The notes: a model not told the origin generated them from the sequence alone. 64,000 nucleotides of DNA from an uncultured Actinomycetota bacterium (GCA_963714145.1 OY970235.1:7962499-8026498), one strand, 5' to 3'. Shown: positions 1,636 to 42,677, numbered from the stretch's first letter. Translations and numbers: made by a program.

Positions 1636-2805
1636 TCAGGTGCCGAAGACGTTCAGGTCCCAGAGCGAGTAGCCCCAGGGGGTGCCGCGCTGGGTGCCGA
1701 ACACCCGGACCCAACGGCCTGAGCCGGACACGGTCAGGTCATCGACCCCGCCGTCGCCGGTGCTGGTACTGGTGATCGTCGTCCAGTTGGTGTTGTCGTT
1801 GGACACCTGCACCTGGTAGGCCCGCCCGAATGCGGCCTCCCAGTTGAGCCGCACCCGGGAGATCTGCCGGGTGCTGCCGAGGTCGACGGAGATCCACTGT
1901 GGATCGGCGAACGCGCTGCTCCACCTGGTGCCGGCGTTGCCGTCCACCGCGTTGCCGGCGGGGAAGCTGGCATTCTCCACTGAGGACGAGGTGGCCGGCC
2001 GGCCCTGGGCGAGGTCGGTCACCGTCCCGGTCGGCGGCCGGCAGTCAGCGGTGACCGAACCGGCCGCGATCTGGATGCCACCTAGCAGCATCCGGGTGAA
2101 CAGCGGGTCGGTGTAGCTCGCCTCGGTGTGCCCGAGGCCGGTGTACCAGGCCCGGCCGGCGCCGACGGTCCGGCACCAGGTGATGGGGTGGTCACCGCCC
2201 ATCGTCCCGCCGCTGTAAGAGGATTCGTTCAGGTTGGCCAGCACGTGCACGTTGGCCCGCGGGTTGGTGCGGTAGTTGTACCACTCGTCGGTGCGGGTCC
2301 AGGTCGCCGGCAGGTGCGCGACCGAGGGGTTGGTCCGGTCCTCGATCCGGACCTGGGCCTGCTGGATCGCCGGGTGGGAGCTGAAGTACGCGCCCATCAG
2401 GCTGCCGTAGAACGGCCAGTCGTACTCGGTGTCGGCCGCGGAGTGCACGCCGACGTAGCCACCGCCGGAGTTGATGTAGGACTGGAACGCCGTCTGCTGG
2501 GTGTCGTTCAGCACGTCGCCGGTGGTCATCATCCAGATCACCGCCTGGTACTGGCCCAGGTTCGCGGTGTTGAACTGGTTGGCGTCCTCGGTCGCGGTGA
2601 CGGTGAACCCGTTCTGCGCGCCGAGTTGCTGGACAGCGGCGATCCCGTTCGGGATCGACGAGTGCCGGAAGCCGGCGGTCTTGGAGAAGACGAGCACCTT
2701 GGTCAGCGGTGCCGCCGCTGCGGGGCTGACCGGGCTGGCCGCGACCGCGACCGCCGTGGTCAGTACGGCTACGCCGACGGCTGTCGAGAGCGCACGGATG
2801 CGCAT
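1636..2805 (-). CDS. ThuA-domain protein with C-terminal F5/8 type C (discoidin/CBM32-like) domain, secreted
   Basis: GAGGAGG RBS before ATG 2805. Signal peptide MRIRALSTAVGVAVLTTAVAVAA. ThuA-like core (KVLVFSKTAGFRHSSIPNG...HPITWC). C-terminal NAVDGNAGTRWSS...WISVDLG...ISRVRLNWE discoidin signature. The frame is intact. Confidence 0.9.
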   Translation of the reverse strand: MRIRALSTAVGVAVLTTAVAVAASPVSPAAAAPLTKVLVFSKTAGFRHSSIPNGIAAVQQLGAQNGFTVTATEDANQFNTANLGQYQAVIWMMTTGDVLNDTQQTAFQSYINSGGGYVGVHSAADTEYDWPFYGSLMGAYFSSHPAIQQAQVRIEDRTNPSVAHLPATWTRTDEWYNYRTNPRANVHVLANLNESSYSGGTMGGDHPITWCRTVGAGRAWYTGLGHTEASYTDPLFTRMLLGGIQIAAGSVTADCRPPTGTVTDLAQGRPATSSSVENASFPAGNAVDGNAGTRWSSAFADPQWISVDLGSTRQISRVRLNWEAAFGRAYQVQVSNDNTNWTTITSTSTGDGGVDDLTVSGSGRWVRVFGTQRGTPWGYSLWDLNVFGT

Positions 2806-2880: not shown

Positions 2881-5660
2881 TCAGGTGCTGATCAGGTCGA
2901 ACTTCTCCCACGGACCGATCGCGGTGCGGTTGGCGATCAGTGCCGCCGCGCCGGCGTTCTCGGCCGTCACGTAGTTGCCGTTGGCCTGCGCGCGCAGGCT
3001 CACCGTGCCGTCCGGGTTGCGGATCAGCGCGAACGTCTCCCAGCCGCCGACGGCCGTCCGGTTGGCTATCAGCGGTTCGGCGCCGGCGTTCTCCGCGCAG
3101 ACGAGCAGCCCGTTGACCCGGGCCCGCAGCGCGATGTTGCCGTTGCCGAGGTCGATCTGCTCGAACTGCTCCCACGGCCCGATCGCGGGGGCGCTGGCGA
3201 TCAGCGGCGCGGCGCCGGCGTTGGCGGCGCTGACGTACTGCCCGTTGGCCAGGGCCCGCAGGCTGATCGAGCCGCCGCTGGCACCCGCGCCGAGCCCGAG
3301 CGTGGACGCCGTGCCGCGCAGCGTCTTGACGCTCTGGTTCGCCGTTCCGGTCAGCGTGGTCGCGGTGTACGCCGACAGCGGCTTGGCGGTGCGCTCGACG
3401 ACGTAGACCGTGTTGGCCGCGGTGGCGAAGGTGATCTCGGCCGCCGAGCTGGTCGCCAGGATCGCGTTGTCCGAAGTGCGGCGGACCCGGACCTGCTGCG
3501 GTGCCCCACGGGTTCACCACCCGGGCCGGCTTGCCGTACAGGCTCTTGCAGCCCGACGTACTTGATCTCGCCGGCCTCGCGCTCGGAGCTGACCAGGAAG
3601 CCGTCCTTGGCCAGCAGGGTGAACTTGCCGACGAAGCTGGCTGTCCGCCGGCACGGCCGGGAAGACCCGGATCTTGTCGTTGTAGCTCTGCAGCAGCGAC
3701 TCGTTCATCGCGGCCAGGTGCACGCCGAGGTACTCGAAGACGCCGTTGGTGTTGTTGGTCATGCCGTTCGGGTAGTTCTGGTAGCGCTGCAGCATCGTCT
3801 TCATGCCGTCGAACGCCTGGTCGCCGAGGCCGAGCCGGGCCGCCTGCACGGCGTCGTTGGCCCACACGTTGCCGTACGGGAGCGGCCGGGCGTTCCAGGT
3901 GTTCACGCGCGGTCTGGTAGTCGGGCGCGCCGATGCCGGTCAGGTCGTACGGCCAGATCAGCTCCGCCGCGACGTTCTCGTTGTTGCGGGTCTGCGCGAT
4001 CGGCGGGTCGTGCGGCAGGAAGGCGCCGTTGCTCGCTGGGTAGGGCGCCAGGTTGTCGAGCAGGTTCTGCCAGCCGGCGCGCAGCCCGCTGTCGAGGCCG
4101 AGCTGCGTGGCTGACCTGGATGGTCGAGCGGGAACAGGCTGCCGCACCGCGGCCAGGTCGGTGATCGCGTTGCGCACGTCCCAGTAGGTCTCGTGCGCGT
4201 TGGACGTGGCCATCTCGTACGTGCCGCCGCTCGAGCGGTCAGCTTGCGCTGGTAGAAGCGTGACCACGTCCCGCATGAACGGGTAGGCGGTGTCCCGCAG
4301 GTAGGCGGTGTCGTTGGTGTACCGGTACTGCAGGTACATGTTGTACGCGGCCTCGGTGCCGGTCGAGTAGATGTCGTTGACGTAGTCGCTGTTGACCGTG
4401 CCGCGGGCGTTGCCGTCCCAGCCCATCGTCTCCGGCACCCACAGCCCGTCGGTGCCGTACCGGGTCTGCGTGTACGCCTTCAGCGCGGCGGTGTTGCGGC
4501 TGTAGAGCCGGTTGAAGGTGGCGAGCAGGTCGGCGTGGTTGGACGCCAGGAACGAGTTGTAGACGTCGCGCTGGTTCCAGTACCAGTAGCCGTTGCTCCA
4601 CTTTGTCTGGTCGCCGGTGGCCCGGAACACGCCGTTGATGAAGTGGAGGGGTAGTTGCCGTAGCCGCCGGCCGCGATCATGTACGTGGCCAGGTAGTAGA
4701 CGTTCTCCAGGTAGTCGGCGTCGCCGCCGACGTTCGGAGTACTGCACGAACGACTCTGCCCAGAAGCCGTGCCACCAGTTCCGGTAGCTGGTCAGGGTGG
4801 TGGCGTAGCCGGTGCGTCTTGACCGCGGCGAGCTGCGTCTGCGGGCCTGGGCGACCGAGTCGAGGTTCGGGCGCGTTGACCCGGCTGGCCGCGGTGAACC
4901 AGATCGTGTAGCTGGACGTGGGCGTGATGCTCAGCCGGACCCGGGTGCCGTTCACCACCTGCGCGGTGTAGCTGGCGCCCTCGACGGTCGCGGCGAAGGT
5001 GTAGCCGAAGTGGTTCGGGTCGGCCTGGCCGCGGCTGAACCCGGCGCCGGTCGCGTCGGCGAAGGTGGATACCGTCCGCCAGGTGCTCAGGTTCGGCACG
5101 TCGGCGCTGTTGGTCGACCGTGCCCGGGTCCCACAGGCTGAGATCGAGGGTGATGCTGCGCGACGCCGGTGCGGCTGTCGTCGACGTGGATGCCCATGAC
5201 CTCGGAGTTCGGCGCGCCCATGCACCGTGACCGTGCGGTTCGCGTCGTACTTCGTGGTGAGCGTGCCGTCGTAGAGCGAGAGCCGCTGCTGGAACGTCGA
5301 GTAGCCGGTGTCCATAGCCGGGCTGGTGGTCAGGTTCGCGATGCCCGGCCGCGAACGCCGACTGCTGCGACAGGTCCACACCGGACACCTGCATGCGTGA
5401 GCCCGTTCTGGCTCCACACCATCGCACCGGTACGCGCCGTTGCCGACGGTCAGGCCGTGCACCGGGTTGGTGTTCGGTCGGTTGTAGACGATGTCGTGCT
5501 TGGACAGGTAGCCGGCGTAGTCGACGCTCAGCGCGCCGGCCGCGGCGTCGAACGCGGCATCCGTGGTAGCGGCCCGGGCTGGTGTGCTGACCGCCCCGGT
5601 CAGCACGAGCCCGGCGATCAGGGGAAGAGCCGCTCGGCGCAGCGGCGGCGAAGCCGTCAT
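2881..5660 (-). pseudogene. Secreted six-hairpin glycoside hydrolase (GH95-like/DUF5703-like N-terminus) with three C-terminal beta-trefoil (fascin/AbfB-like) repeats; multiply frameshifted
   Basis: Signal peptide MTASPPLRRAALPLIAGLVLTGAVSTPARA from ATG 5660. Conserved blocks (LSKHDIVYNRPNTNPVHGLTVGNG; MQVSGVDLSQQSAFAAG; HFINGVFRATGDQTKWSNGYWYWNQRDVYN; NTWNARPLPYGNVWANDAVQAARLGL) are scattered over all three minus frames, with at least 8 shifts by my reading. The tail ANGQYVSAANAGAAPLIA...ANGNYVTAENAGAAALIANRTAIGPWEKFDLIST ends at TGA 2881-2883. Confidence 0.65.
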
Positions 5661-7477: not shown

Positions 7478-8686
7478 ATGACGGTGCTGGTGGACGACCC
7501 GGACCCGGGGTTGGCCGGGCCCCGGGGTGACGGTGTGATCGACGTCGCCGGCCAGCGGCTGACCGTGGCCGAGTTCCTGGCCGAGTGCGCCCGCACCCTC
7601 GGCGATCCGGCCGCCCCGATCGCCGCCCAGCGGGACCGCTTCCTCGCCGCCGGGCTGGCCGCGCTGCGCCGGGCCCCGGACGGTCGCGAGTGGACGGCGG
7701 TCGGGCTGCGCCCGGCGGACGGGCGGTTCGCCGAACTGTGCGCGGAACTCGGCACCGCCGCCCGCGGCCTGCTGGCCGCCGGAGCGACCAACTTCTTCTT
7801 CATGCGCAAGCCGCCTGGGCTGCGGGTGCGGCTCGCCGGCCCGCCGGATCTCGCCGCTGCACTTCGCTCGCATGTGGACAGTTGGCGTTCGGATGGTCTG
7901 CTGGCCGAGGTCGTGCCGAGCGGGTACGAGCCGGAAGAGCACCTGTTCGGCGGACCGGTGTCGATGCGATACGTGCACCGACTGTTCACTGTGGACTCGC
8001 TGGCCTGGCTCGACCACGCCGCGCGCTCCGGCGGCCTGCCGGCCTGGGCATTCTCGCTGCGGCTGATCCGGGCGCTGCTGGACGGGCTGGAGATCGTCGG
8101 TTGGGAGGACCTGGACGTCTGGGACCGGCTGCGCCGCCAGGCTTACCGGACGCTGCCGGCGCCGGTGACGGGCACCGCCGCGTATGCGGCGGCGGCCGAG
8201 GGGGTCCGGGCCGCCTGGGCCGGCGCTGACGATCCGGTCGCGGGCTTTCCGGCCACGGGCTTTCCGGCCGCGGGCTCTGCGGTCGCGGGCTCTGCGGTCG
8301 CGGGCTCTGCGCCCGCGGGCTTTCCGGTCGAGGTGAAAGCGGTTGCAGCGGAGTGGCGGGCCGGCTACTTCGCCACCCCCGAGGCGTACGTCGGGCCGCG
8401 CGAAGCCGCCGCATTCGCGATCGTGTTCCACTGGAACCGCGGCGGCCTCCCACCGCTGCGCCAGGGCCTGCTCGCCGAAGCGCTGGCCGACCGGGCCGCC
8501 CTGTCGGCTCGGGGTGCCGGGTCGGCTGGGGGCGCCGGGTCGGCTCGGGATGCCGAGTTGGCTCGGGGTGCTGGGTCGGCCGGGGGTGCTGAGTCGGCTC
8601 GGGGTGTCGAGTCGGCCAGCGGTGGCTCGACACCCAGGGGTGTCGGGCCGGCCGGGGGCGCCGGGTCGGGTGGGTGGGCCCGGTGA
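7478..8686 (+). CDS. lanB: Split LanB, elimination-domain protein (SpaB_C / thiopeptide-type bacteriocin biosynthesis domain) with repeat-rich C-terminal tail
   Basis: REWTAVGLRP...ATNFFFMRKPPGLRVRLAG...GYEPEEHLFGG...FTVDSLAWL matches the W...FFFiRY..gpHlRlR...Y.pE..RYGG pattern of LanB C-terminal domains. The stop overlaps the next ORF's start. Confidence 0.8.
   Translation: MTVLVDDPDPGLAGPRGDGVIDVAGQRLTVAEFLAECARTLGDPAAPIAAQRDRFLAAGLAALRRAPDGREWTAVGLRPADGRFAELCAELGTAARGLLAAGATNFFFMRKPPGLRVRLAGPPDLAAALRSHVDSWRSDGLLAEVVPSGYEPEEHLFGGPVSMRYVHRLFTVDSLAWLDHAARSGGLPAWAFSLRLIRALLDGLEIVGWEDLDVWDRLRRQAYRTLPAPVTGTAAYAAAAEGVRAAWAGADDPVAGFPATGFPAAGSAVAGSAVAGSAPAGFPVEVKAVAAEWRAGYFATPEAYVGPREAAAFAIVFHWNRGGLPPLRQGLLAEALADRAALSARGAGSAGGAGSARDAELARGAGSAGGAESARGVESASGGSTPRGVGPAGGAGSGGWAR
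8237..8326 (+). repeat. Six in-frame 15-bp tandem units (GFPAT/GFPAA/GSAVA...)
   Basis: gtcgcgggctttccg / gccacgggctttccg / gccgcgggctctgcg / gtcgcgggctctgcg x2 / cccgcgggctttccg, read directly. Confidence 0.9.
8504..8670 (+). repeat. In-frame 18-bp tandem units (SARGAG/SAGGAG...), degenerating toward the 3' end
   Basis: tcggctcggggtgccggg / tcggctgggggcgccggg / tcggctcgggatgccgag / ttggctcggggtgctggg / tcggccgggggtgctgag / tcggctcggggtgtcgag ... Confidence 0.85.
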
Positions 8687-11600
8687 CCGAGGTGGCGCTG
8701 CTCCGGGTCTGCGGCCTGCCCGGGTCCGGATGGACAGTCGCGGCGGCGCCTGACCTGTTCGAGTTGGCCGGGGCGCTGGACGCCGGCGCCGAACGGCTGC
8801 GGGCCGACGCGACGGCGCTGGCGGCCCGGATCGGCGCCGAGCTGGTGCCCGGGCCGGAACTATCCACTGTGGATCGTGGGCGGGCACTCGCGGTCCGGCG
8901 GGCACTGCATACGACCGGCGATGCCCCCGCCGCCGACCTGGCCGCGGTCGCCGACCTTGCCGACTCGGTCCGACCCGGTCCGGTCGGGGCCGGGCAATCC
9001 GGCTGGGTCGGGGCCGGGCAGTCCGGCTGGGGCGGGCCTGGGCAGTCCGGCCCGGTCGGAGCCGGGCGATCTGGCCGGGTCGGGCCTGGGGAGTCCGGCC
9101 GGTCCGGTCCGGTCGGGGCTGAGCTGATCGGTCCGGTCGGGCCCGGGGCGGCCGAGCCGGGCCGGGCCGAGCCGCCCGGGCCGGTCGGGGTGGGGTTGGC
9201 CGGGTCTGAGCCGGTCGGCCTGGTTGCGGCCGGGTTGGCCGGGGCAGCGGGCGGTGAGGGCCCACTGGGTCAGGCGTTGCGCGGGCTGGCTGAGCGGCAG
9301 CACGCGCTCGCCGCGGCGGTGGAGCGGTTCGACGCCGCGGTCGAGGCGGCCCAGACCGGGTGGCTCGGCGCCGCCTGGCAGGTGGTCGGCGAGTCGGCGA
9401 CGGCTCGGCGGGCGGTCCGGGCGGCGAATCCGCTGGCGCTGGCCGATATCGCCGCGCGGCTGGCTGCGGGTGAGCCGTGGACCGGGAAGCGGTTGCGGCA
9501 GCGGGCCGACTACCTGTGGCGGCTGGCGACCCGGGGCAGTACCCGGGCCACCCCACGCGGCTGGCTCGGCCACCTGGCGCTGCTCCCGATCGACCCGGCC
9601 ATCCCGGCCGGGCCGCTGCCGCCGCTGCTGCCGGAGTACGCGATCGAGCAGGCCGGGAACCTGCACGTAGCGGCGCTGGCCGGCCTGGCCGCGGACTCGG
9701 TGTTGACGGTCGCGCCGCTGCACCGGTCCGGCGCCGGTCAGAGCCGGTTCTGGGTGGTCCGGCCGGAGGAACCGTCCCGGCTGATCGAGCTGACCGTCCG
9801 GACCACGCCGGTGCTGGCGGCGATCGTCCGCGCGCTGCGCGAGCGGCCGTTGACCACCAACCAGCTCTGGTCCGAAGTGGACGGGCCGGCGCTGCCGCGC
9901 CGGGAGGTGTTCGACGGGTTCGTCCGGCACCTTGTCGGGCTGGGCGTGCTGGCCGCTGCCGCCCGACCCGGCTGGACGGTGCACGGCTGGCGCCCCTGGC
10001 CGGCCGACCCGCTGGCTGAGCCGGCGACCGGGCCGCTGGCTGAGTCGTCGGCCGACTCGCCGGCTGGGCCGTTGGCTGAGCCGTTGGCCAACCCGTCGGC
10101 CCGGTCGTTGGCTGAGTTGCCGGCCGGGCCGTTGGCCGACCCGTCCGTCGGGCCGTTGGCTGAGCCACTGACGAACCCGCCGGCCGAGCCGTCGGCCGAC
10201 CCGCCGGCTGGGCCGTTGGCTGACCGGTCGGTCGGGCCGCTGGCTGAGCTGGCGGTCGAGCCGCCGGCCGGGTCGTTGGCCGACCCGTCGGCCGGGCTGG
10301 CGGTCGAGCCGGGTGGCTACGTCGATGTCTACCGGCGGGCGGCCGGCGGGCTGTCCCGGGCCACGTGCGCCGAGCTGGCGGAGCTGGTCGGCCTGGCGCT
10401 ACGGGTGCTGGCCGTGCTGGACAGCGAGCAGCCGCGACCCGCCGCGGGTCCTGACCTTCCGGACCCCGGCCCCGCGGAGCCGCGCCCGCTGCTGGAGCTG
10501 GTGGCCGCGGATGTCGCCGCCGAGCACGCCAGCGACCGTCCACTCCGGACCGAAGTGGACCCGGGGCATCACCATGACTGGCCGCCGGTCGAGGACCCGG
10601 AGTCGCCACCCGGCCGGCTGCTCGGCTGGCTGGCCGACCGGCTGGATGCCGGGCCGGTCGACGTCGACGCCAGCGTGCTCGACCGGAGCGCCCAGCTGGA
10701 CTGGCCGGCCGACTGCCTGATCCGTCCATTGTGGCCGGGCGCGGCCGGGCTGCGCGAGGTGCCGGACCGGCCGGGCGCGGCCGGGCCGCGGGCGGTGCTG
10801 GACCGGATCGAGCCGACCGGGCTGCTGGACGCCCGGTTCGGGCACGGGCTGGCGGCGCTGTTCGATGCCGGTGCCGCCCGGGCCGGCTGGTACCGGGAAT
10901 TCCTGCGTGCGGTGGAGGAGGCAGCTCGCGGTCGGTTCGTCGAGCTGCTCGCGCCGGCGCTGTCGGACCGGGCCGCGAACGCGGTGCGCCGGCCGCTGCA
11001 CACCAGCTACTGGACCGGTGACCCGGATCTGCTCCGCTACTGCCCGACTCCGCCCGGGCCGGCGCCGCGATTCATCCCGCTTGCCGATATCACCGTCCGG
11101 CAGGTGGCCGGCGCGCCGGTGGTGGTGGCCGGCAGCGAGCCGATCTGGCCCGTCTACCACGCCACCCGCCAGCTACCGCCGCCCTGGGACGCGTTGGCCC
11201 GGAGGCTGCTCGGCGCCGGGCCGGCACCACCTCGGTCCCGCTGGCGCTCGCTGCGGTACTCGCTGCCGGCGTGGCCGGGGCGTGACTTCGTCCCGCGGAT
11301 CACTGTCGGCGCCGGCGCGCTGGTGCTGACGTGTGCGCAGTGGCGGGTCCGGCCGGGCGATCTCTGGCCGGCCACGGCCCCGCTGGCCGCGAAGGTGCGG
11401 GCGCTCGACCGGCTGCGCCGCCGGCTCGAACTACCGCGGTGGATCACCGCCGCGACCTCGGTGCACGACGAGCCGACCGCCTGCGACCTGCTCAGCCTGC
11501 AGGCGGTCGCGGTGCTCGACCGGCTGCTGCGGCACCGGGTGGAAGCGCTTTACCTTGCCGAGATGCTGCCGTCCCCGCCGCAGTTCCCGGTGTCCGACCA

Positions 11601-11733
11601 GGCCGCCGGATCGGGCCGCAGCCAGGCCGAACTGCTGTTCCGGCTGCCGCTCGGTGCCTCGCCCACCGCGATGGCCGCCCGCGCGGCCGCCGCCTATCAG
11701 AGCCGGGCCGCGCCGCTCGTGCCGGCCCGCTGA
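8674..11733 (+). CDS. lanB: Split LanB, glutamylation-domain lanthipeptide dehydratase (Lant_dehydr_N-like) with two low-complexity insertions
   Basis: N-terminus VALLRVCGLP...RALAVRRALH and C-terminal ...LPRWITAATSVHDEPTACDLLSLQAVAVLDRLL are typical of the LanB N-domain, and no SpaB_C-like end is present. GTG 8674 or GTG 8683 (GTGA overlap with the upstream stop) could be the start. Confidence 0.8.
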   Translation: MGPVTEVALLRVCGLPGSGWTVAAAPDLFELAGALDAGAERLRADATALAARIGAELVPGPELSTVDRGRALAVRRALHTTGDAPAADLAAVADLADSVRPGPVGAGQSGWVGAGQSGWGGPGQSGPVGAGRSGRVGPGESGRSGPVGAELIGPVGPGAAEPGRAEPPGPVGVGLAGSEPVGLVAAGLAGAAGGEGPLGQALRGLAERQHALAAAVERFDAAVEAAQTGWLGAAWQVVGESATARRAVRAANPLALADIAARLAAGEPWTGKRLRQRADYLWRLATRGSTRATPRGWLGHLALLPIDPAIPAGPLPPLLPEYAIEQAGNLHVAALAGLAADSVLTVAPLHRSGAGQSRFWVVRPEEPSRLIELTVRTTPVLAAIVRALRERPLTTNQLWSEVDGPALPRREVFDGFVRHLVGLGVLAAAARPGWTVHGWRPWPADPLAEPATGPLAESSADSPAGPLAEPLANPSARSLAELPAGPLADPSVGPLAEPLTNPPAEPSADPPAGPLADRSVGPLAELAVEPPAGSLADPSAGLAVEPGGYVDVYRRAAGGLSRATCAELAELVGLALRVLAVLDSEQPRPAAGPDLPDPGPAEPRPLLELVAADVAAEHASDRPLRTEVDPGHHHDWPPVEDPESPPGRLLGWLADRLDAGPVDVDASVLDRSAQLDWPADCLIRPLWPGAAGLREVPDRPGAAGPRAVLDRIEPTGLLDARFGHGLAALFDAGAARAGWYREFLRAVEEAARGRFVELLAPALSDRAANAVRRPLHTSYWTGDPDLLRYCPTPPGPAPRFIPLADITVRQVAGAPVVVAGSEPIWPVYHATRQLPPPWDALARRLLGAGPAPPRSRWRSLRYSLPAWPGRDFVPRITVGAGALVLTCAQWRVRPGDLWPATAPLAAKVRALDRLRRRLELPRWITAATSVHDEPTACDLLSLQAVAVLDRLLRHRVEALYLAEMLPSPPQFPVSDQAAGSGRSQAELLFRLPLGASPTAMAARAAAAYQSRAAPLVPAR
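8983..9105 (+). repeat. Five in-frame 24-bp tandem units (VGAGQSGW-type)
   Basis: gtcggggccgggcaatccggctgg repeated with small changes; it encodes VGAGQSGW VGAGQSGW GGPGQSGP VGAGRSGR VGPGESGR. Confidence 0.9.
10008..10305 (+). repeat. About 300-bp in-frame low-complexity array (PLAE/PxAGPLA-type units)
   Basis: Encodes PLAEPATGPLAESSADSPAGPLAEPLANPSARSLAELPAGPLADPSVGPLAEPLTNPPAEPSADPPAGPLADRSVGPLAELAVEPPAGSLADPSAG. Confidence 0.85.
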
Positions 11734-11762
11734 TCCACCGGCGAAGGGAGGAGCACCCACCT

Positions 11763-11777
11763 CGTCCACTGTGGACG
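11763..11777. promoter_or_regulatory. Perfect 15-bp interrupted palindrome CGTCCAC-T-GTGGACG in the lanB-lanA intergenic region (candidate operator)
   Basis: Read directly. It lies 60 nt upstream of the precursor ATG and is a member of the over-represented CCACWGTGG family (see findings). Confidence 0.4.
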
Positions 11778-11836
11778 GAGTTGGCACCGAACCGGGCCGC
11801 TCGAACGGGCGGCCCAGTCACTCGAGGAGGAGCACC

Positions 11837-12001
11837 ATGCCGCCGACCACCGACCTGACCCCCAGCGTCCCGGTCGACTCCATCGAAGCACTGATCGCCG
11901 AGCTGGAGGCGCAGACCGAGCGCGAGGTCCCGCTCAGCGACATCACGGACCCCTGGCCGTCCGAGATCTGCACCGGCCGCTTCACCTGCGTCCCGCGCTA
12001 A
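11837..12001 (+). CDS. lanA: Lanthipeptide-type precursor peptide (54 aa)
   Basis: GAGGAGGAG RBS 4-5 nt before the ATG. Sequence MPPTTDLTPSVPVDSIEALIAELEAQTEREVPLSDITDPWPSEICTGRFTCVPR. It has an acidic helical leader and a Ser/Thr/Cys-containing C-terminus, and it sits between the dehydratase and the cyclase. Confidence 0.7.
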   Translation: MPPTTDLTPSVPVDSIEALIAELEAQTEREVPLSDITDPWPSEICTGRFTCVPR

Positions 12002-12086
12002 CCGGACCGACCCGCCGGCGCGTCGGCTGGGCCCACACCCAGCCGGCGCGCCGGCTCCACCAGGGAGCACTCATGCCGGTCCCGAG

Positions 12087-13352
12087 GTGCCGAACGGTTG
12101 CCGCCGGCCCGACCCGTACCGCCGCGGCCGGCCGGAAGCGCCGACCGTGATCCGCGCCGGCGCGACCGACGGGGGTATATCGACCGGCGGCAGTACCGGG
12201 CACGGCTCCGGTGCCAACGGCGGTGGCCGGCAGTTGGGCCTGCCGGATGCCGATCTGGCCGGCGTCGTGGCGGAGGTCGCCATCGGTCCGGGGCTGCGGC
12301 AGACCGGCGACGCGGGAGTCGGCGTGCTGCTCGGGTTGGTCAGGACGGAACTGCCGGTGCGGCAGGCGTTGCTGGCCGAGTGGCTCGGTGGGCTGCGCGC
12401 CGGGGCCGCCGGCGGTGGGCTGTTCGGCGGTGGGTCGGCCGGGCACGCCGTCGGGCTGGCGTACGCGGCCGAGGCCGAGCCGAGGCTGGCCGGGTTGGCC
12501 ACCCGCCGGCGGGCGGCGTTGGCCGGCTGGGCCGGCGCGAGCCCGTGGCGCGGCGATGCGGTCGGCTGGGCCGACTATGACCTGATGACCGGGCCGGCGG
12601 GGGTGCTGCTCGCGCTGGCCAGCCTGCCGGCGCCCGCGCCGGCCGAGATCCGCCCGCTGGCCGAGCACCTCGCCGGCCTGACCGGCGACCTGGACCGGTT
12701 GCGGGTGCGGCGGCATGCCGGTGACGGTCAGGCCGCCCAACTCGGCCACCTCGACCACGGCCTGGCCCACGGCCTCGCCGGCGTCGTGGCCGCAATGACC
12801 GCTGCCGCCCGGCTGTTCGGACCCGAACCGCCCGGGTTGCGCCGGGCCGCGCACCGGCTCCGTGCGACGTCCTATGTGGACAGTACCGGCGTAGCGAGCT
12901 GGCCGCCGAGCAGCGCCGGGGCCGACCCGTCCCGTCCGGTCCACCGGCAGGCCTGGTGCTACGGCGCGCCGGGCGTTGCCTGGGCGCTCTGGGATGCCGG
13001 CCAGCTGTTGGGCGATGCCGAGCTGACCGGCCTCGCGGCCGCGGCGATGGCCAGCCTCTGCGCGGCCTGGGACGACGACCGCTACCTCTACGGCGAGCTG
13101 GGCGACCGGCTCGGCGTCTGTCACGGCGCGGCCGGTGTTCTCGCCGTCGCCGACGCGTTCGCCCGGCACGCCGGGCACCAGCCAGCGGCCGGGCTGCGTA
13201 CCCACCTGCGCGGCCGGATTGACCCGGACCGCATCGCCGAGCTCGGCCGTACCGACCTGACCATGCTCAACGGCGCGGCCGGCGTGCTGACTGTGCTGAC
13301 CACTGTGGACGGTGGCCGGCGCGACTGGCTGCCGGTGCTGGGGCTGCGATGA
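12087..13352 (+). CDS. lanC: LanC-type lanthipeptide cyclase
   Basis: GLAHGLAG, WCYGAPGVAWAL and CHGAAGVL motifs (Zn ligands Cys/Cys/His). The true start is uncertain (GTG 12087 or a later GTG). The stop overlaps the next ATG (ATGA). Confidence 0.9.
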   Translation: MPNGCRRPDPYRRGRPEAPTVIRAGATDGGISTGGSTGHGSGANGGGRQLGLPDADLAGVVAEVAIGPGLRQTGDAGVGVLLGLVRTELPVRQALLAEWLGGLRAGAAGGGLFGGGSAGHAVGLAYAAEAEPRLAGLATRRRAALAGWAGASPWRGDAVGWADYDLMTGPAGVLLALASLPAPAPAEIRPLAEHLAGLTGDLDRLRVRRHAGDGQAAQLGHLDHGLAHGLAGVVAAMTAAARLFGPEPPGLRRAAHRLRATSYVDSTGVASWPPSSAGADPSRPVHRQAWCYGAPGVAWALWDAGQLLGDAELTGLAAAAMASLCAAWDDDRYLYGELGDRLGVCHGAAGVLAVADAFARHAGHQPAAGLRTHLRGRIDPDRIAELGRTDLTMLNGAAGVLTVLTTVDGGRRDWLPVLGLR

Positions 13353-15112
13353 CCGCGGTACTGCGGATGCTGCTCGCCGTCTCCCGCCGGAAAGTGGCGG
13401 CACTCGCGGTGGTCGTGCTGGTGCAGGCGCTCGCCCCGGTCGCGGCGGTGGTCGCGGTCGGGCACCTGCTCGGTGCGGTGGTCGCGCTGCGCACCGATCC
13501 GGGCGCGCCCGGCCGGGCCTGGCTCGCGTTCGCGCTGCTGGCTGCCGCCTGGCTGGCCGATCAGCTGGCCCAGTTCGCCGGCGCGGCGCTCACCGCCCGG
13601 CTGAGCCGGCTGGTGGCCGAGCACATCACCGGCGCGGTGCTGGCGGCCAGCCTCCACCCGGTCGGCATCGGTCACCTGGAGGATCCGGCGCGGGCCGATC
13701 AGTTCAGCCTGGCCCAGGGGCTCGGCGCCGGCAGCTTCCCGCCGGCCGCCGCGGTAGCCGCGCTGACCCAGGTGGCGGTGATCCGGCTGCAGGCGCTGGC
13801 CACGGCGGTGACGCTGGCCAGCGTGCTCTGGTGGGCGCCGCTGCCGCTGATTCTCGGCTGGGTACTGCTCGGCCGGCGCGTCGCCGGGCAACTCCGCGAG
13901 CAGGTGCGGGCGGTACAGGCGGAGACCGCGGCGCTGCGCCAGGCGACCTACTTCCGCACGCTCGGCCTGGACCTCGGCGCCGCCAAGGAGGTCCGGGTCT
14001 TCGGCCTCGGCGGCTGGCTGGCCGACCGGTTCACCGCCTGCTGGCAGGCCGGCATGGGTGAACTGCTCCGCCGCCGGGACAGCCGGCTGCCGCTGGCCTG
14101 GCGGACCGCGCTGCTGGTCGGCAGCTACGCGGCGGTGCTGACCGTCCTGGTGGACGCCACGCTGGCCGGTCGGGTGTCGATCACCGGGTTGACCATCGCG
14201 ATCCCGGCCGCGATCGCGATGTCCGGCTTCGGGTGGAGCGGGGATCCACAGTGGACGCTCGCCGGCGCGGCGCCGGCCATCCAGCAGGCGCTGGCACTGT
14301 CCGAGCCGGCGCCGCCGCGCGCCGGTCGTGACCCGGACGGGCCGCGGGTCGGCATCCGGTTCGAGGACGTCAGCTTCGGCTACCCCGGCCGCCCGGACCG
14401 ACCGGCGGACCGGCTGAACCTGTGCATCCCGGCCGGCCAGTCGCTGGCCATCGTCGGCGCGAACGGAGCCGGCAAGACCACCCTCATCAAGCTGCTGGCC
14501 CGGCTGTACGAGCCGGCCGCGGGCCGGATCACGGTCGACGACGTCGATCTGCGCGAGCTGGACGCGGCCGGCTGGCGCCGCCAGCTCGCCATCGTCTTCC
14601 AGGACTTCCTCCGGCTGGAGCTGACCGCCCGCGACAACGTCGCATGTGGACGGTCCGGTACTCCGGTGGACGAGGCGGCGCTCGCCGCCGCCGCATCCGC
14701 GGCCGGTGCCGCGGACCTGATCGCGACGCTGCCGCAGGGCTGGGACACCGTGCTGTCCCGCCGGTTCGGCGACACCGAGCTGTCCGGCGGCCAGTGGCAG
14801 AAGCTGGCGCTGGCCCGGGCGCTCTACGCGGTGCGGCTCGGCGCCCGGGTGCTTGTCCTGGACGAGCCGACCGCGCAGCTGGACGCGGCGGCCGAGGCCG
14901 AGCTCTACGCGCGGTACCTGGAGCTCACCCGCGGGCTGACCACCGTGCTGGTCTCGCACCGGTTCAACACGGTCCGGCTGGCCGACCGGATCGTGGTGCT
15001 CGCCGGCGGCCGCATCGTCGAGGACGGCAGCCACGACGAGCTGATCCGAGCCGGTGACTGGTACGCCCGGATGTTCCGGCTGCAGGCCGACCGGCTCGCG
15101 GCGTCCACATGA
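13349..15112 (+). CDS. ABC exporter, fused permease/ATPase
   Basis: Six-TM-like N-terminal half. Walker A GANGAGKTT, signature LSGGQWQ, Walker B LVLDEPTA. ATGA coupling at both ends. Confidence 0.9.
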   Translation: MTAVLRMLLAVSRRKVAALAVVVLVQALAPVAAVVAVGHLLGAVVALRTDPGAPGRAWLAFALLAAAWLADQLAQFAGAALTARLSRLVAEHITGAVLAASLHPVGIGHLEDPARADQFSLAQGLGAGSFPPAAAVAALTQVAVIRLQALATAVTLASVLWWAPLPLILGWVLLGRRVAGQLREQVRAVQAETAALRQATYFRTLGLDLGAAKEVRVFGLGGWLADRFTACWQAGMGELLRRRDSRLPLAWRTALLVGSYAAVLTVLVDATLAGRVSITGLTIAIPAAIAMSGFGWSGDPQWTLAGAAPAIQQALALSEPAPPRAGRDPDGPRVGIRFEDVSFGYPGRPDRPADRLNLCIPAGQSLAIVGANGAGKTTLIKLLARLYEPAAGRITVDDVDLRELDAAGWRRQLAIVFQDFLRLELTARDNVACGRSGTPVDEAALAAAASAAGAADLIATLPQGWDTVLSRRFGDTELSGGQWQKLALARALYAVRLGARVLVLDEPTAQLDAAAEAELYARYLELTRGLTTVLVSHRFNTVRLADRIVVLAGGRIVEDGSHDELIRAGDWYARMFRLQADRLAAST

Positions 15113-16923
15113 GACTCGAATGGCTGCGGTTGTGGTCCGCGCTGCTGCGGCTGGCGCTGCGGGCCGATCGGCGGCGCGCGGTCACCGTGCTGCTGCTGGC
15201 CCCGCTGGCCGGCGCGGCGATCGGCGCTCCGGCGCTGGCTCTGAAATGGACAGTCGACGCGGTGGTCCGCGGCGATCGGGGGCAGGCGTTCGCGGCGGCG
15301 GCGGCGTTGGCCGGCGCCGTCGTCGCCGTCTCGCTGCTGGGCACCGCGGCCACCAGTGTCCGGCTGGCCCTGCAGCAGCAGGCCGGGCAGGCGCTGGACC
15401 GGCACCTGATCGAACTGTGCACCGGCATCCCCGGCCTGGACCGGCACGAGGATCCGGCCTTCCAGGACCGGCTGGAGATCCTGCACCGCAACCGGGACGT
15501 GCTCGCGTCCGCGATCAGCAGCCTGCTGGAGAACCTCCGCACCGGCGCCCGGCTGGTGTCGATGGTCGTCCTGCTCGCCGGTATCGACCTGCGACTGCTG
15601 CTGCTCCCGCTGTTCGCGCTGCCCACGGTGCTGGCGGCCGGCGCCGGGCAGCGGCTGCAGCGCCGCTGCGACGAGGAGATCGCCGCGCCGAGCCGGCTGC
15701 GTGGCTGGCTGTTCACCCTCGGCAGCACCGCCGGCCCGGCCAAGGAACTGCGCGTCTACAACCTGGCGGACGAGCTGACCCGCCGGCACGATCGCCTGCA
15801 GCAGGCGGTGAACGACCGCGACCAGTCCACCGCGATACGCGTCGCCGCGCTGGAGTTCGCCGGCTGGACGGTCTTCTGCGCCGGCATTCTCGGCGCGGTG
15901 GCGCTGGTACTGCACCGGGCCGTCCACGGCACGGCCACGGCCGGCGACGTCGTGCTGCTGGTCACGCTGGCTACCCAGGTGGACAGCACGGTCGCCACCG
16001 CCGCCCGCGCTGTCCAGTGGCTGCGCCGCGCCAGTTGGGCCGGCAGCCACTACCGCTGGTTGATCGGCGAGGCCGGCCCGTCCGGGTCGGTCGCCGGGCC
16101 GGCCCCGGAACCGGGCGAACTGGTCTTCGACCGGGTCACGTTCGGCTACCCGGGCCGGGAGCAGCCGGTGCTGCGGGAGGTGTCGCTGCGCATCCCGGCC
16201 GGCGCCACCGTAGCGCTGGTCGGTGCGAACGGCGCCGGCAAGTCCACAGTGGTCAAACTGCTCTGCCGGCTGTACGAGCCGACCAGCGGCCACATCCGCC
16301 TCGGCGGCCGGGACATCCGCGACTTTCCGCTGGACGCCTGGCGAGCCCGGATCACCGCCGCCTTCCAGGACTTCTACCGGTACGAGCTGCCGCTACGGGA
16401 CGGCGTCGGCATCGGCGACCTGTCCACTATGGACGATGCGGGCGCGGTCACCCGGGCGATCGCCCGGGCCGGCGCGACCGCGCTCGTGGACAGCCTGCCA
16501 GCCGGCGCGGCCACCCAGCTCGGCCGCAGCTACGCCGACGGCCAGGACCTCTCCGCCGGCCAGTGGCAACAGCTCGCCGTCGCCCGCGCGATGATGCGCG
16601 AACACCCGCTGCTCACCATCCTGGACGAACCCACCGCCAGCCTCGACCCGGCCGCCGAGCAGGCCCTGTTCGAGCGCTACGCCGCCGCGGCCGCCGACCC
16701 CACCAGCATCACCATCCTGGTCTCGCACCGCTTCTCCACCGTCCGCACCGCCGACCTGATCGTCGTCCTCGACTCCGGCCAGGTCCGCCAGTTCGGCACC
16801 CACCAACAACTCCTCGCCGAACCAGGCCCCTACGCCACCCTGGTAGCCCTGCACACCCGCGGCTTCGCCACTCCTGAAGCCACCGAGCCAGCCGCTGAGC
16901 CAACACCGCCGGTCCACCAGTAG
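15109..16923 (+). CDS. ABC exporter, fused permease/ATPase (probable heterodimer partner)
   Basis: Walker A GANGAGKST, signature LSAGQWQ, Walker B TILDEPTA. Confidence 0.9.
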   Translation: MRLEWLRLWSALLRLALRADRRRAVTVLLLAPLAGAAIGAPALALKWTVDAVVRGDRGQAFAAAAALAGAVVAVSLLGTAATSVRLALQQQAGQALDRHLIELCTGIPGLDRHEDPAFQDRLEILHRNRDVLASAISSLLENLRTGARLVSMVVLLAGIDLRLLLLPLFALPTVLAAGAGQRLQRRCDEEIAAPSRLRGWLFTLGSTAGPAKELRVYNLADELTRRHDRLQQAVNDRDQSTAIRVAALEFAGWTVFCAGILGAVALVLHRAVHGTATAGDVVLLVTLATQVDSTVATAARAVQWLRRASWAGSHYRWLIGEAGPSGSVAGPAPEPGELVFDRVTFGYPGREQPVLREVSLRIPAGATVALVGANGAGKSTVVKLLCRLYEPTSGHIRLGGRDIRDFPLDAWRARITAAFQDFYRYELPLRDGVGIGDLSTMDDAGAVTRAIARAGATALVDSLPAGAATQLGRSYADGQDLSAGQWQQLAVARAMMREHPLLTILDEPTASLDPAAEQALFERYAAAAADPTSITILVSHRFSTVRTADLIVVLDSGQVRQFGTHQQLLAEPGPYATLVALHTRGFATPEATEPAAEPTPPVHQ

Positions 16924-16975
16924 GGCCAGGGAGCAGCGGCCGGGATGCGGCCGGACACCGTCCACATGCGTCGCG

Positions 16976-18850
16976 TCAGCGGATGTGGATCTCCGGGGGC
17001 CGGGGTGGGCGTTCCGGGCGGCCGGGGTCTTCCGGGCCGAAGTGCGGTTCCTCGCCGGGGCGGAGCGGGCGCCGGCAGCCGTCGCACGGGCCGGTGCCGC
17101 CGCTGTCCAGGTAGCGGGCCTGGTTGGCCAGGTCGACGGCTCCGGCGGCAGGCTCCTCGGCCGCCGCCCGGTCGAAGACCGAGTCCGGGGCCAGCGGCGT
17201 GGCCAGCCGCACCGTGCGCAACCGGCCGAGCAGGTCGGTGAGGGCGGCCAGCCGCAGCCGGCCCGGCTCCGGAACGACCGCGTCGGCCACCGGCGGCGGC
17301 TCGGTGGCGCCGGCCAGCCGGTTCGTCCAGCGGTAGAAGACGTTCTTCAGCCGGCTGCCCTCGACCAGACCCTGCAGGTACTCCTGGACGATCTGGACGA
17401 CCTCGTGCCGGCCCAGGCTGACCAGCGGGATGGTGCTCGCGACCGCGGTCGCGGCGAGTTCGGCGGCCAGTTCGGCCTGCCTGGTCGCGGTGTCGGTGGC
17501 CCGCTGCTGGGTGTCCAGGCGGTCGACCCGTTCGCGCAGGTCGCCCGGGTCGCCGACGGGCGGGTCGAAGTGCGCGGTCGCGCCGCCGGCCGGGGACGAG
17601 AGGACGTCGGCGGTGTCGATCCGCAGCGTCGTCGCCTGGATCCGGCCGACCCGTGCGGCCAGGTCGCGCTCCACGCCGGTGGCCTCGTCGCCGCTGGGTG
17701 GGCTGGTCTCGTGGATCTTGCGGACGATGTTGACCAGCGGTGGCCGGATGGTGCTGCCAGCCGCGGTGAACTCCCGGCGGATCTCCTCGTACGCGGCCCG
17801 GGCGCCGTCGGCTTCGAGTTGGCGCTGCAACGCCACCGTGTACTTCGCCCGCAGTTGGCCGTGCAGCGTCGCGGCGATCGCGGCCGGCGCGGTCAAGCCG
17901 ATCAGCACGACCACCATCAGTCCAATGTGGACACCACTGAGCAGGCGGCGGCCGAGGCTCACTGCCGGCAGCACCGGAACGCGGCGCAGCCGGGTCGGGA
18001 CGGCGGCCAGCCACCCCGGCCGCAGCGCGAACGCGACGCTGGCGGCGGCCAGCAGCAGGTAGCCGGACGTCCAGACCCACCAGGGCAGGTCGGCCACCGA
18101 CCCGACCCGGGCCAGTGCGTCGCGGACCGCGACGACCTCCCAGCGCGGCAGGTCGAGCAGGTTGGCCAGCCAGACCAGGAACAGCAGCAGGCTGACACCG
18201 AGCAGCAGGGAGAGCACGACGTCGGCGCCGGCCCGCACCGGGAGCCGGCGGGCGCCGGCCATCGCCCGCCAGGTCCGTACCGCCGCCCAGGCGCCGATCG
18301 GCAGCAGTAGCCCGGCCAGCGAACGCGCGGCCAGCGGGTCGCGGCTGAACAGGACCGTGGCGGCGCCGCCGGCGGTGCCGGCGAGCAGCAGGTCGGGCAG
18401 GTGCCGCAGCGGCCACCGGCGGGCGGCCCGGAACCGACGGTGGGCCAGCAGACAGGCCCAGCCGCCGCCGGTGAGCACGATCGCCGCCGCCAGCACGGCC
18501 GCCGCGCCGCCGCCGTTCCCGTGCGGCCGGCCCGGTCCGATCTGCCAGACCAGCCAGCCCACCACCGGGCCGGCGAGCAGCAGCGCGCCGGCCCGGTACC
18601 GCAGCCCGTCCCCGGGCCGGAGCAGGCGGCCGACGGCGGTCAGCACCCGGCCGAGCCACACCGTGCCGAAACCGCCGAGGATGGTGATGGCGACGATCGA
18701 CTCCCACCAGGCCCCGGCCGCCGGCCCGGTGCGCCACAGGCCGACCACGACGGCGCCGGCGAGACCCAGCGCGACCGCGAGGCTGATCCGGCGGACCGCA
18801 GCCGGCCGCGACAGCACTTCGAACAGCCGCCGCATTCGCCTGCGCCCCAA
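16976..18850 (-). CDS. Polytopic membrane protein of unknown function with soluble C-terminal half
   Basis: Multiple hydrophobic helices (AVALGLAGAVVVGLW, ITILGGFGTVWLG, VLSLLLGVSLLLFLVWL, GLMVVVLIGLTAPAAIAA) followed by a charged helical region. It is the coherent frame among overlapping shadow ORFs. No family recognised. Confidence 0.55.
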   Translation of the reverse strand: MGRRRMRRLFEVLSRPAAVRRISLAVALGLAGAVVVGLWRTGPAAGAWWESIVAITILGGFGTVWLGRVLTAVGRLLRPGDGLRYRAGALLLAGPVVGWLVWQIGPGRPHGNGGGAAAVLAAAIVLTGGGWACLLAHRRFRAARRWPLRHLPDLLLAGTAGGAATVLFSRDPLAARSLAGLLLPIGAWAAVRTWRAMAGARRLPVRAGADVVLSLLLGVSLLLFLVWLANLLDLPRWEVVAVRDALARVGSVADLPWWVWTSGYLLLAAASVAFALRPGWLAAVPTRLRRVPVLPAVSLGRRLLSGVHIGLMVVVLIGLTAPAAIAATLHGQLRAKYTVALQRQLEADGARAAYEEIRREFTAAGSTIRPPLVNIVRKIHETSPPSGDEATGVERDLAARVGRIQATTLRIDTADVLSSPAGGATAHFDPPVGDPGDLRERVDRLDTQQRATDTATRQAELAAELAATAVASTIPLVSLGRHEVVQIVQEYLQGLVEGSRLKNVFYRWTNRLAGATEPPPVADAVVPEPGRLRLAALTDLLGRLRTVRLATPLAPDSVFDRAAAEEPAAGAVDLANQARYLDSGGTGPCDGCRRPLRPGEEPHFGPEDPGRPERPPRPPEIHIR

Positions 18851-25544: not shown

Positions 25545-25602
25545 GAGCGTTCTCCGTCGTGCTCGGCAAACCAGCTGTCTCGCCCGCCATGAATCGTCCC
25601 GG

Positions 25603-27213: not shown

Positions 27214-27333
27214 GGGCGGTCGCGGTGGCCGACCGGCAGAAGATAGGTGGGCCCGACCCCGGCCCTGGATACCGGTGCGGGCGGCTGCGCGCCGGCGCCC
27301 CCGTCGGCGCCGGCGCGGGTTGGTCCCGGCCGG

Positions 27334-29085: not shown

Positions 29086-29274
29086 CTGCTTCTCCCTGGC
29101 TGGCGGCGGCTGGCCGCCGCTGTCCTGGCCGGCATCGCCGGCACTGTGACTGACACCAGGCCAGTGGGCCTCCGCGCGCCGCCGGGTACCCGCCGCGCCG
29201 GCTCGGCGGCGGTCTGCCCGATCGGATCGACCTGCCGGGCATCCGCCAGCCCCGCTCCGCCCCGCGCGGTCGGG

Positions 29275-42487: not shown

Positions 42488-42677
42488 GGGCCACCCCCTG
42501 AGAATCGGACAACAGTAGGGCATCCAGCACGGACCAGGTGTGTTCGGGAGCTCGGGCCGGCTCCGCTGCACGACCAGGGGGTGGCCGGTGCCCGCGCGGC
42601 TGGTCAGCTGGCGGCGGCGGCGGCGGACCGGCGGCACCGGCGCGGCCGGCGGCCGGGAGCGGGCTAGGGTCGGCGGC

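Follow-up and report, generated by a model that had tools for sequence, protein, structure and literature searches.

Bacterial genomes and their phages contain several well-described classes of short, recurrent DNA sites. The cyanobacterial highly iterated palindrome HIP1 (GCGATCGC) is 8 bp long and occurs about once per kb with a fairly even spread, and its function is debated. The uptake signal sequences (USS) of Pasteurellaceae and DNA uptake sequences (DUS) of Neisseria, also present about once per kb, are not palindromes and belong to naturally competent Gram-negative bacteria; molecular drive is the kind of explanation proposed for both these and HIP1. Stoperators of Cluster A mycobacteriophages are 13-bp asymmetric repressor sites, oriented with transcription and phage specific. 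Sites of the ParB family, such as parS (TGTTNCACGTGAAACA), the Noc site NBS, and the KorB operator OB (TTTAGCSGCTAAA), are 13- to 16-bp palindromes used for DNA organization or long-range repression. The actinobacterial DnaA box is a single asymmetric box (consensus TTGTCCACA; 9-mer TT(G/A)TCCACA). Restriction sites, which in type II systems span 4 to 8 bp, are usually avoided rather than enriched in host genomes. StrR-like regulators (Bbr, Dbv4, Tei15*, and AoStrR1) bind the operator GTCCAaN17TtGGAC (PMC7852140). Here, we describe a palindrome, (G)TCCACWGTGGA(C), that is concentrated in and beside a class I lanthipeptide (lan) operon in 64,000 nucleotides of DNA from an uncultured Actinomycetota bacterium (GCA_963714145.1, OY970235.1:7962499-8026498), a stretch called the window below (G+C content, 74%). 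We tentatively interpret it as the binding site of a lineage-restricted protein, and the operon is most likely an unusually dense patch of a lineage-wide motif and not the motif's home.

The core of the palindrome, CCACWGTGG, occurs seven times in the window (starts at 1894, 8864, 11766, 13300, 14246, 16244, and 56462), in agreement with a preliminary description of this DNA that had listed the same seven copies. Dinucleotide shuffles predict 0.82 copies, and none of 100 shuffles reached 7. Among all 256 palindromes of the form N4-W-N4', this core was the top outlier, Markov models of order 1 to 5 giving expectations of 0.13 to 1.14. Its one-mismatch neighbors were not enriched (9 seen versus ~19 expected), and those few carry the flanks of the exact copies. 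CCACWGTGG is the core of an 11- to 13-bp palindrome: with up to one mismatch allowed, TCCACWGTGGA has 11 sites in the window (starts at 1893, 1976, 7985, 8863, 11765, 13299, 14245, 16243, 16423, 17921, and 56461) versus 0.56 expected, a count that again none of 100 dinucleotide shuffles reached. Both halves of the palindrome are kept at all 11 sites, whose symmetrized profile reads (G/A)TCCACWGTGGA(C/T), in which G at −6 and C at +6 are the weaker positions. The extended forms reported previously, GATCCACTGTGGATC (1891-1905), ATCCACTGTGGAT (8862-8874), and CGTCCACTGTGGACG (11763-11777), are correct. Three further variants had been reported and do exist, although their positions were off by 1 to 2 nucleotides and are in fact 7984-7996, 16422-16434, and 17920-17932.

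The sites are also strikingly uneven in their placement. Ten of the 11 fall between 1893 and 17931, that is, in the first 18 kb, versus one in the remaining 46 kb, and eight (7985-17931) lie in the lan operon and a convergent membrane-protein gene. This neighborhood of 10 kb thus holds eight good sites, where ~0.5 would be expected at the density of the lineage, along with ~4 weak ones. The copy at 11765 is the only intergenic one of the 11.

Within genes, the sites are read in different frames and from both coding strands, as S/T/F-T-V-D, as S-T-V-V (in a Walker A motif), and as P-Q-W. They use the Thr codons ACT and ACA and the Pro codon CCA, all of which are rare in the window, as had been claimed for ACT and CCA (2.8% and 3.5% of Thr codons and 5.1% of Pro codons, respectively). 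We resampled codons by keeping every protein and drawing synonymous codons from the window's own usage (200 replicates). The expectation was 0.48 for coding copies of CCACWGTGG (6 observed), 0.70 for coding 11-mer sites (10 observed), and 0.32 for coding 11-mer sites in the lan region at 7478-18850 (7 observed), and the largest total in any replicate was 4, compared to 11 observed. With the proteins held fixed, then, 0.70 sites are expected against 10 observed, and the signal therefore lies in the DNA and not in the protein. The disappearance of the cluster after correction for codon and dipeptide content had been named in advance as a refutation, and the cluster survives that correction. Some sites do coincide with conserved peptides (Walker A G-K-S-T-V, LanB F-T-V-D, and the lanA leader Q-S-T-V-E), as would suit an origin by chance or as a by-product of protein motifs and codon usage. 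However, the codon resampling, the shuffles, and the rank of the core among the 256 palindromes already refute that explanation, to which we assign a negligible probability.

A scan of species genomes (one genome per species) with the exact 15-mer CGTCCACWGTGGACG matched at least 118 loci. Among the matches listed, 83 come from Pseudonocardiaceae (Amycolatopsis, Lentzea, Saccharothrix, Actinosynnema, Kutzneria, Prauserella, Actinophytocola, Umezawaea, and others), 13 from Micromonosporaceae, 13 from actinobacterial metagenome-assembled genomes (MAGs), 8 from other sources, and 1 from a record labeled Streptomyces. The last of these (locus L196; JARAYZ010000003.1, Streptomyces sp. ID05-26A) shares 88.7% identity with a Lentzea contig (L137) over 5 kb, and the record is probably mislabeled or not Streptomyces. 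The 118 listed loci, 906 kb in total, contain 96 non-seed sites, or ~1 per 9.4 kb, versus ~0.07 expected per 8 kb; they hold 134 perfect 13-mers as well as 56 one-mismatch 13-mers, of which 1.6 were expected. Samples drawn without regard to the motif gave, for Pseudonocardiaceae, six sites in LanC-homolog loci of four of them (84.5 kb) and six in the whole Amycolatopsis plasmid NZ_CP091380.1 (150 kb). These 12 sites in 234.5 kb compare to a single site in a total of 242 kb from Streptomycetaceae (conditional binomial, ~1e-3). Overall, the density in these genomes is ~1 site per 10 to 25 kb. The preliminary description had tied the motif to the lan operon, a link that does not hold up, as the motif is lineage-wide in Pseudonocardiaceae and Micromonosporaceae genomes and is also found in viral contigs. 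Searches of the searchable literature with the 11-mer and 13-mer strings and with keywords returned no description of the motif; the strings matched only unrelated eukaryotic primers.

Dense patches are found at other loci too, including genes for a nonribosomal peptide synthetase (six sites in 8 kb), a polyketide synthase, a urea carboxylase with allophanate hydrolase, and imuB-dnaE2. In Actinocatenispora comari (L112, position 6166), the 18-bp gap between imuB and dnaE2 is taken up by a perfect 11-mer immediately 5' of the dnaE2 start, and three further sites lie within 5 kb of it. The dnaE2 gene of the Amycolatopsis plasmid has a site as well (L213, position 10144).

The limits of the motif are sharp. 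No information content was seen past position ±6 in 212 sites; as nothing is conserved beyond this point, we rejected a miniature inverted-repeat transposable element or a longer mobile repeat. In an unbiased set of 68 CCACWGTGG sites, T stands at −5 in 79% of half-sites and G at −6 in 62%, compared to 27% and 49% for the control CCACSGTGG, which occurs at expectation (32 versus 32.5). Lone half-sites are likewise at expectation and not enriched. At the center, ACW accounts for 6.5% of Thr codons overall, for 7 to 8% beside one half-site, and for 77% between both half-sites (seed sites included). The central base of non-seed TCCACNGTGGA is W in 38 of 42 cases and S in 4, and composition-matched control palindromes occur 0 to 4 times. 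In two Amycolatopsis species whose sequences are 79.5% identical over the locus (L102, position 3839; L139, position 960), a perfect 13-mer occupies the same position with its central base switched from T to A, the change that would be expected if W itself, and not a specific base, matters. The codon resampling, the ACW context, and the W and S counts all back the earlier suggestion of a pressure on the DNA rather than on the protein: maintenance of the sites operates on the DNA, and rare codons are its price.

These data also bear on a second proposal of the preliminary description, namely, that the motif is a restriction or methylation site, or the product of deamination of a methylated CCAC(C/G)GTGG. 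Central-W palindromes are typical of type II systems, and the sampled Amycolatopsis plasmid encodes several DNA methyltransferases. However, the motif is enriched 10- to 20-fold and, with 11 to 13 specified positions, is too long for such a site; the local hot spots and the tandem arrays found in phages (see below) also fit poorly. Deamination in particular is rejected, as the presumed precursor CCACSGTGG stands at its expected count and lacks the T/A flanks at −5/+5 (27% versus 79%). We consider a restriction or methylation origin very unlikely.

Where the sites lie relative to genes is important in choosing among the remaining explanations. Crude open reading frame (ORF) calls place ~2/3 of sites in ORFs, 77% of these in the frame TCC-ACW-GTG-GAx, which is the frame needing only one rare codon. 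Of the 23 sites in unbiased DNA with annotation, 21 fall in coding sequence, approximately the coding density. With ~90% of them inside genes, the sites are not ordinary operators. The main rival to a binding site is a highly iterated palindrome kept by molecular drive, either through biased mismatch repair together with a methyltransferase or through preferential uptake or transfer, in which case the lan cluster would lack any site-specific function and would be a by-product of, for example, horizontal exchange. The lineage-wide spacing of ~1 per 10 to 25 kb, the ~90% of sites that are coding in line with the coding density, the preference for the frame with a single rare codon, and the absence of a conserved neighbor gene all agree with such a drive, as do pairs of sites just after stop codons that form strong stem-loops in the manner of paired DUS. 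Yet 11 to 13 specified positions are, to our knowledge, far more than in any methyltransferase or Vsr site. Neither the abutting arrays 5' of terS nor the iteron-like arrays found in viral contigs would be expected from repair or uptake, the clustering of eight sites in 10 kb is strong, and CCACSGTGG shows no depletion and does not have the flanks of the motif. We therefore regard molecular drive as unlikely, although less so than the other rivals.

The 5' end of lanA is a place where a site recurs. Four of five Pseudonocardiaceae-type lan clusters (the window, L200, L202, and L204, but not L199) have a site within ~100 bp of the lanA start: it covers lanA codons 7 to 10 (S-T-V-E) in Kibdelosporangium and codons 3 to 6 (S-T-V-E) in Actinokineospora, and it lies ~100 bp 5' of lanA in Actinophytocola. 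In the window, the perfect site GTCCACTGTGGAC (11764..11776), central to the 15-bp palindrome CGTCCACTGTGGACG, is located between lanB and lanA, with the palindrome ending 59 nucleotides 5' of the lanA ATG (11837). An 11-nucleotide direct repeat, GGAGGAGCACC, is present at 11747-11757 and 11826-11836, 79 nucleotides apart. The second copy is the ribosome-binding region of lanA, just before the ATG, and the first resembles a ribosome-binding site (RBS) and is followed by the palindrome. This upstream arrangement aligns with the RBS-ATG-CAG-TCC-ACN-GTG-GAA starts of lanA in the other clusters, where it is coding. It is as if the 5' end of lanA had been duplicated, leaving an upstream copy without an ATG, and because the upstream GGAGGAGCACC copy and the palindrome align with those starts, the intergenic site looks like a remnant of an ancestral start of lanA in which a perfect palindrome was kept though no longer read. 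A promoter and terminator scan of the lanB-lanA spacer found nothing. The next lan relative (L003/L005; LanC 59% identical) shows no site in the part covered, which comprises lanA-lanC only.

The leading idea of the preliminary description was that the sites are operators for a pathway-specific regulator of this lanthipeptide cluster. In keeping with it are the eight sites in or beside the operon, the perfect palindrome in the lanB-lanA intergenic region, and the recurrence at lanA in other Pseudonocardiaceae. However, the same motif is found in unrelated genes, plasmids, and phages across a bacterial family; seven of the eight local sites are intragenic; no regulator was found among the genes scanned in the cluster and its neighborhood; and no site is present in the homologous Saccharothrix cluster or in two Streptomyces lan clusters. 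The distribution of the motif largely refutes this idea, which is now highly improbable.

Scanning viral contigs with the exact CGTCCACWGTGGACG yielded 74 loci, 26 of them with further copies. In the L063 group and the L007/L048/L069/L079 group, two or three abutting 13-bp units stand 30 to 60 bp 5' of the gene at the terS position, which is followed by terL. The terS-position proteins of the L063 and L079 groups have no detectable mutual similarity. The L063 ORF has a weak small-terminase PHROG match, and the 135-amino-acid protein of the L079 group, for which the only PHROG match is named "minor tail protein," looks like a P27-family small terminase. The only ORFs that recur beside sites fall into three small groups from viral contigs; the ORF at the terS position of the L079 group makes up the largest. 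Other viral contigs have dispersed copies, both intragenic and intergenic, at ~1 per 1.5 to 2 kb. Iteron-like tandem arrays are present in L209 (5908-6015; three 36-bp repeats, each with GTGTCCACTGTGGACAC; 57% G+C) and L212 (3953-4010; four 15-bp repeats of TCCACTGTGGnnnnn; 53% G+C), and given these base compositions, the core is also used in phages of lower G+C content. The viral arrays look like binding platforms. No tandem arrays were found in isolated phages or PLSDB plasmids, and an Embleya match was discarded as a chance near-match. In the collection searched, the array-bearing phages have no close cultured relative, the best TerL match being at most 39% identical.

Several viral contigs have site pairs that adjoin DnaB-helicase or Prim-Pol genes. 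In L060 (817-1050) and L025 (830-1060), ten direct TCCACA repeats follow one another in one orientation with ~15- to 60-bp spacing, the last unit forming the palindrome CGTCCACAGTGGACG; these look like DnaA-box arrays and may mark a phage or plasmid origin. In L210, the palindrome stands beside a canonical TGTGGATAA box. Such contexts are compatible with the motif being a pair of head-to-head actinobacterial DnaA boxes that share the central base and serve as binding sites for DnaA or a protein resembling its domain IV. The half-site RTCCACA equals positions 3 to 9 of the box, and a central W gives one perfect box on either strand, which would explain the strict W. However, DnaA specificity is common to all Actinobacteria, yet 242 kb of Streptomycetaceae DNA has a single site. 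Half-sites on their own show no enrichment, positions −7/−8 (the TT of the box) carry no T signal relative to the control in the unbiased set, and the cluster of sites inside the lanthipeptide operon would be left without explanation. Based on half-site counts, flank composition, and lineage distribution, we largely reject the DnaA-box explanation as improbable.

A role for the motif as RNA, through folding of the transcript into a hairpin, is more improbable still, to the point of being extremely unlikely. Site pairs 15 to 45 nucleotides apart do fold at −25 to −35 kcal/mol (z, −3.4 to −3.9), and several sites are at translation starts or just after stop codons. However, single sites fold weakly (z, −0.2 to −2.4), and positions −1/+1, which are unable to pair across a 1-nucleotide loop, show the same conservation as the stem. 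The A or T at the center does not depend on which strand is coding, and sites are found on both gene strands. We saw neither strand-specific conservation nor covariation that preserves pairing.

Taken together, we favor, with something less than even confidence, the interpretation that the palindrome is the recognition site of a candidate sequence-specific DNA-binding protein, which would bind as a symmetric dimer, be encoded outside the window, and be restricted to Pseudonocardiaceae, Micromonosporaceae, and a few neighboring lineages. We infer the existence of this protein and its action from the maintenance of the sites at the DNA level, their symmetry, their lineage restriction, the hot spots, the phage arrays, and the recurrence at lanA. 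Because ~90% of sites are intragenic, a silencing or road-block mode is more likely than promoter control, and the putative binder may act as a nucleoid-associated or global silencing or architectural factor rather than as a promoter-bound regulator. With sites as dense as in the lan operon, bound dimers in large numbers could coat it, bridge it, or act as road-blocks, and the site retained at the lanA 5' end might control expression of the precursor. Phages of these hosts could use the same host factor, or a homolog, at the start of the packaging operon and at origin-like regions. The earlier suggestion of operators for a dimeric regulator encoded elsewhere is thus upheld, as a best guess, in regard to a symmetric and presumably dimeric binder encoded outside the window, but not in regard to operators in the usual sense, as 21 of the 23 unbiased sites are coding. 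A broader proposition, which we hold to be doubtful, is that Pseudonocardiaceae and Micromonosporaceae possess an undescribed genome-wide dimeric DNA-binding system, with sites in hundreds of coding sequences and a concentration in biosynthetic and accessory loci for silencing or organization, and that phages have co-opted these sites.

It is also important to point out the observations that weigh against a binding protein. No binder was identified among the window genes and site-adjacent ORFs scanned, and the scanned window genes include no DNA-binding gene except that of an extracytoplasmic function (ECF) sigma factor. The ORFs beside phage site clusters gave no informative Pfam or PHROG match, and no gene family recurs beside the sites in genome loci. 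Intergenic DNA is not enriched for sites, as the 21 coding sites of 23 indicate, and a nonfunctional molecular drive would give the same coding and intergenic pattern. From the geometry of the motif, the centers of the half-sites would be only ~6 to 7 bp apart, which is unusual for helix-turn-helix dimers. In other orthologous pairs, a non-seed site survived wherever identity was at least 80% and was missing below 78%; at 75 to 90% identity, this retention could not be told apart from the neutral expectation. The test of conservation has little power because the relatives of the window are 97 to 99% identical to it; all three (L001, L002, and L004, namely, a MAG contig labeled Mycobacteriales bacterium [GCA_035544115.1], an ENA assembly, and a JGI metagenome contig) keep the eight sites at 7985-17921, which has no power as a test of conservation. 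Also, the unbiased samples are small, and the taxonomic picture consists of the matches listed and these samples.

The lan operon (7478..16923, + strand), delimited from Pfam matches, translation, and the gene calls of the near-identical L001, comprises a split LanB (elimination domain, 7478-8686; glutamylation domain, 8674-11733), lanA (11837-12001; 54 amino acids), lanC (~12147-13352), and two ABC transporters (13349-15112 and 15109-16923), all on the + strand. The junction of the two lanB genes carries an indel of ~105 bp (35 amino acids) between the window (8526-8593) and its 97 to 99% identical relatives (L001, 6447-6470), and the elimination-domain ORF has 402 amino acids in the window versus 367 as called in L001. 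The palindromic sites themselves are given without strand. Within the operon, site GTTCACTGTGGAC (7984..7996) lies in the elimination-domain gene and is read as F-T(ACT)-V-D. The aligned position is GTTCACAGTGGAC in L202 and GTTCACGGTGGAC in L204, and the Thr codon of this F-T-V-D is ACT in the window, ACA in Actinokineospora, and ACG in Actinophytocola. Site ATCCACTGTGGAT (8862..8874) is ~190 nucleotides into the glutamylation-domain gene, read as S-T(ACT)-V-D. Beyond the intergenic copy, GACCACTGTGGAC (13298..13310; T-T(ACT)-V-D) is near the 3' end of lanC, ~40 to 50 nucleotides before the start of the first ABC-transporter gene. That gene contains ATCCACAGTGGAC (14244..14256; D-P(CCA)-Q-W-T), and the second contains GTCCACAGTGGTC (16242..16254), over the Walker A motif G-K-S-T(ACA)-V-V, and the variant GTCCACTATGGAC (16422..16434; S-T-M-D). 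The variant GTCCAATGTGGAC (17920..17932) is in the convergent membrane-protein gene (16976-18850, − strand), which has no Pfam match.

Elsewhere in the window, a ThuA-like gene (1636-2847, − strand) contains a further copy of ATCCACTGTGGAT (1892..1904; perfect 11-mer core), read on the coding strand as D-P(CCA)-Q-W-I, and the degenerate site CTCCACTGAGGAC (1975..1987; one mismatch in the 11-mer). The isolated site TTCCACAGTGGGC (56460..56472; L-P(CCA)-Q-W-A) is in the gene of a 2,810-amino-acid protein (52880-61312, + strand) with an eCIS_core domain, an annexin repeat, and a C-terminal Ntox4 toxin domain, which looks like a polymorphic toxin or contractile injection system cargo. Weak sites with two mismatches are GTCCACACCGGAC (5374..5386), where L001 has GTCCACATTGGAC with one mismatch, and GTCCTATGTGGAC (12869..12881) in lanC; other weak candidates (two to three mismatches) are at 9870, 10724, and 14639. 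The 8-mer TGGACAGT, present at 7875, 8731, 12877, and 15247 on the + strand and at 26575 on the − strand (five versus 1.15 expected), had been taken for a half-site. On its coding strand, the lan operon does carry four copies, and the 8-mer is over-represented, but it is not part of the palindrome, and we rejected it as a half-site.

Besides the lan operon, the window is rich in secondary-metabolism genes, and at 41105-52095 it encodes condensation-domain, AIR-synthase-like, and nicotianamine-synthase-like proteins, an amidase-amidohydrolase fusion, and a terpene synthase. A run of genes at 21911-29274 (− strand), with a CHAT-domain/TPR protein (1,034 amino acids), the ECF-type sigma factor (24990-25544), an S8 peptidase, and a weak vWA-like match, could be a conflict or signaling module.

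Pseudonocardiaceae (Amycolatopsis, Saccharopolyspora, Lentzea, and Saccharothrix) and Micromonosporaceae rank among the main producers of antibiotics, and in culture the majority of their gene clusters stay silent. The length of the motif, its codon cost, its density in some clusters, and its position at lanA point to a lineage-specific factor acting on clusters. If such a factor were found, clusters could be switched on by deleting it or by recoding the sites synonymously. The motif is also a simple sequence marker by which metagenomic contigs and phages can be linked to these hosts, and it offers a second system, beside cyanobacterial HIP1, in which to study how over-represented palindromes arise and persist.

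Each of the site classes introduced above differs from the palindrome in some respects. From type II restriction-modification sites it differs in its 11 to 13 specified positions and its 10- to 20-fold over-representation. Like USS and DUS, it is lineage specific, frequent in genes in the least costly frames, and present as inverted pairs 3' of genes; unlike them, it is palindromic and sparser, and no uptake system is linked to it here. It shares (G/A)TCCAC(A), positions 3 to 9, with the DnaA box, and arrays of TCCACA are found in some of the same viral contigs, but it is a strict palindrome without enrichment of lone half-sites or a TT signal and is nearly absent from the Streptomycetaceae sampled (1 site in 242 kb). 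The operators of StrR-like regulators have identical outer half-sites, GTCCA and TGGAC, and are likewise found in biosynthetic clusters of Pseudonocardiaceae and relatives. However, their spacer is 17 to 18 bp, compared to 3 bp here (GTCCA-CWG-TGGAC), and they are promoter proximal and specific to glycopeptide clusters, whereas seven of our eight local sites are intragenic; the window genes scanned include no StrR- or ParB-like gene.

Stoperators resemble the motif in their 13-bp unit, in their many copies along transcription units, including inside genes, in actinobacterial phages, and in a plausible road-block or silencing action. They differ in that the motif is a perfect palindrome that is also present in host chromosomes and a plasmid, and no repressor was found by Pfam or PHROG among the ORFs beside phage site clusters. 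HIP1 is similarly a lineage-restricted palindrome, over-represented many-fold in both coding and noncoding DNA and constraining codon choice; our motif is longer (11 to 13 bp), rarer (~1 per 10 to 25 kb), and uneven (10 sites crowd into the first 18 kb of the window, and the other 46 kb holds 1), and it forms tandem arrays in phages. ParB-type sites have a different sequence and a far lower copy number per genome, the motif has no tie to oriC, and none of the ORFs scanned beside sites gave a ParB-like match. Nevertheless, the palindrome resembles these 13- to 16-bp sites in length and in its replicon-wide, often intragenic distribution; KorB OB, too, is built as 6+1+6, and parS has the same central CAC/GTG.

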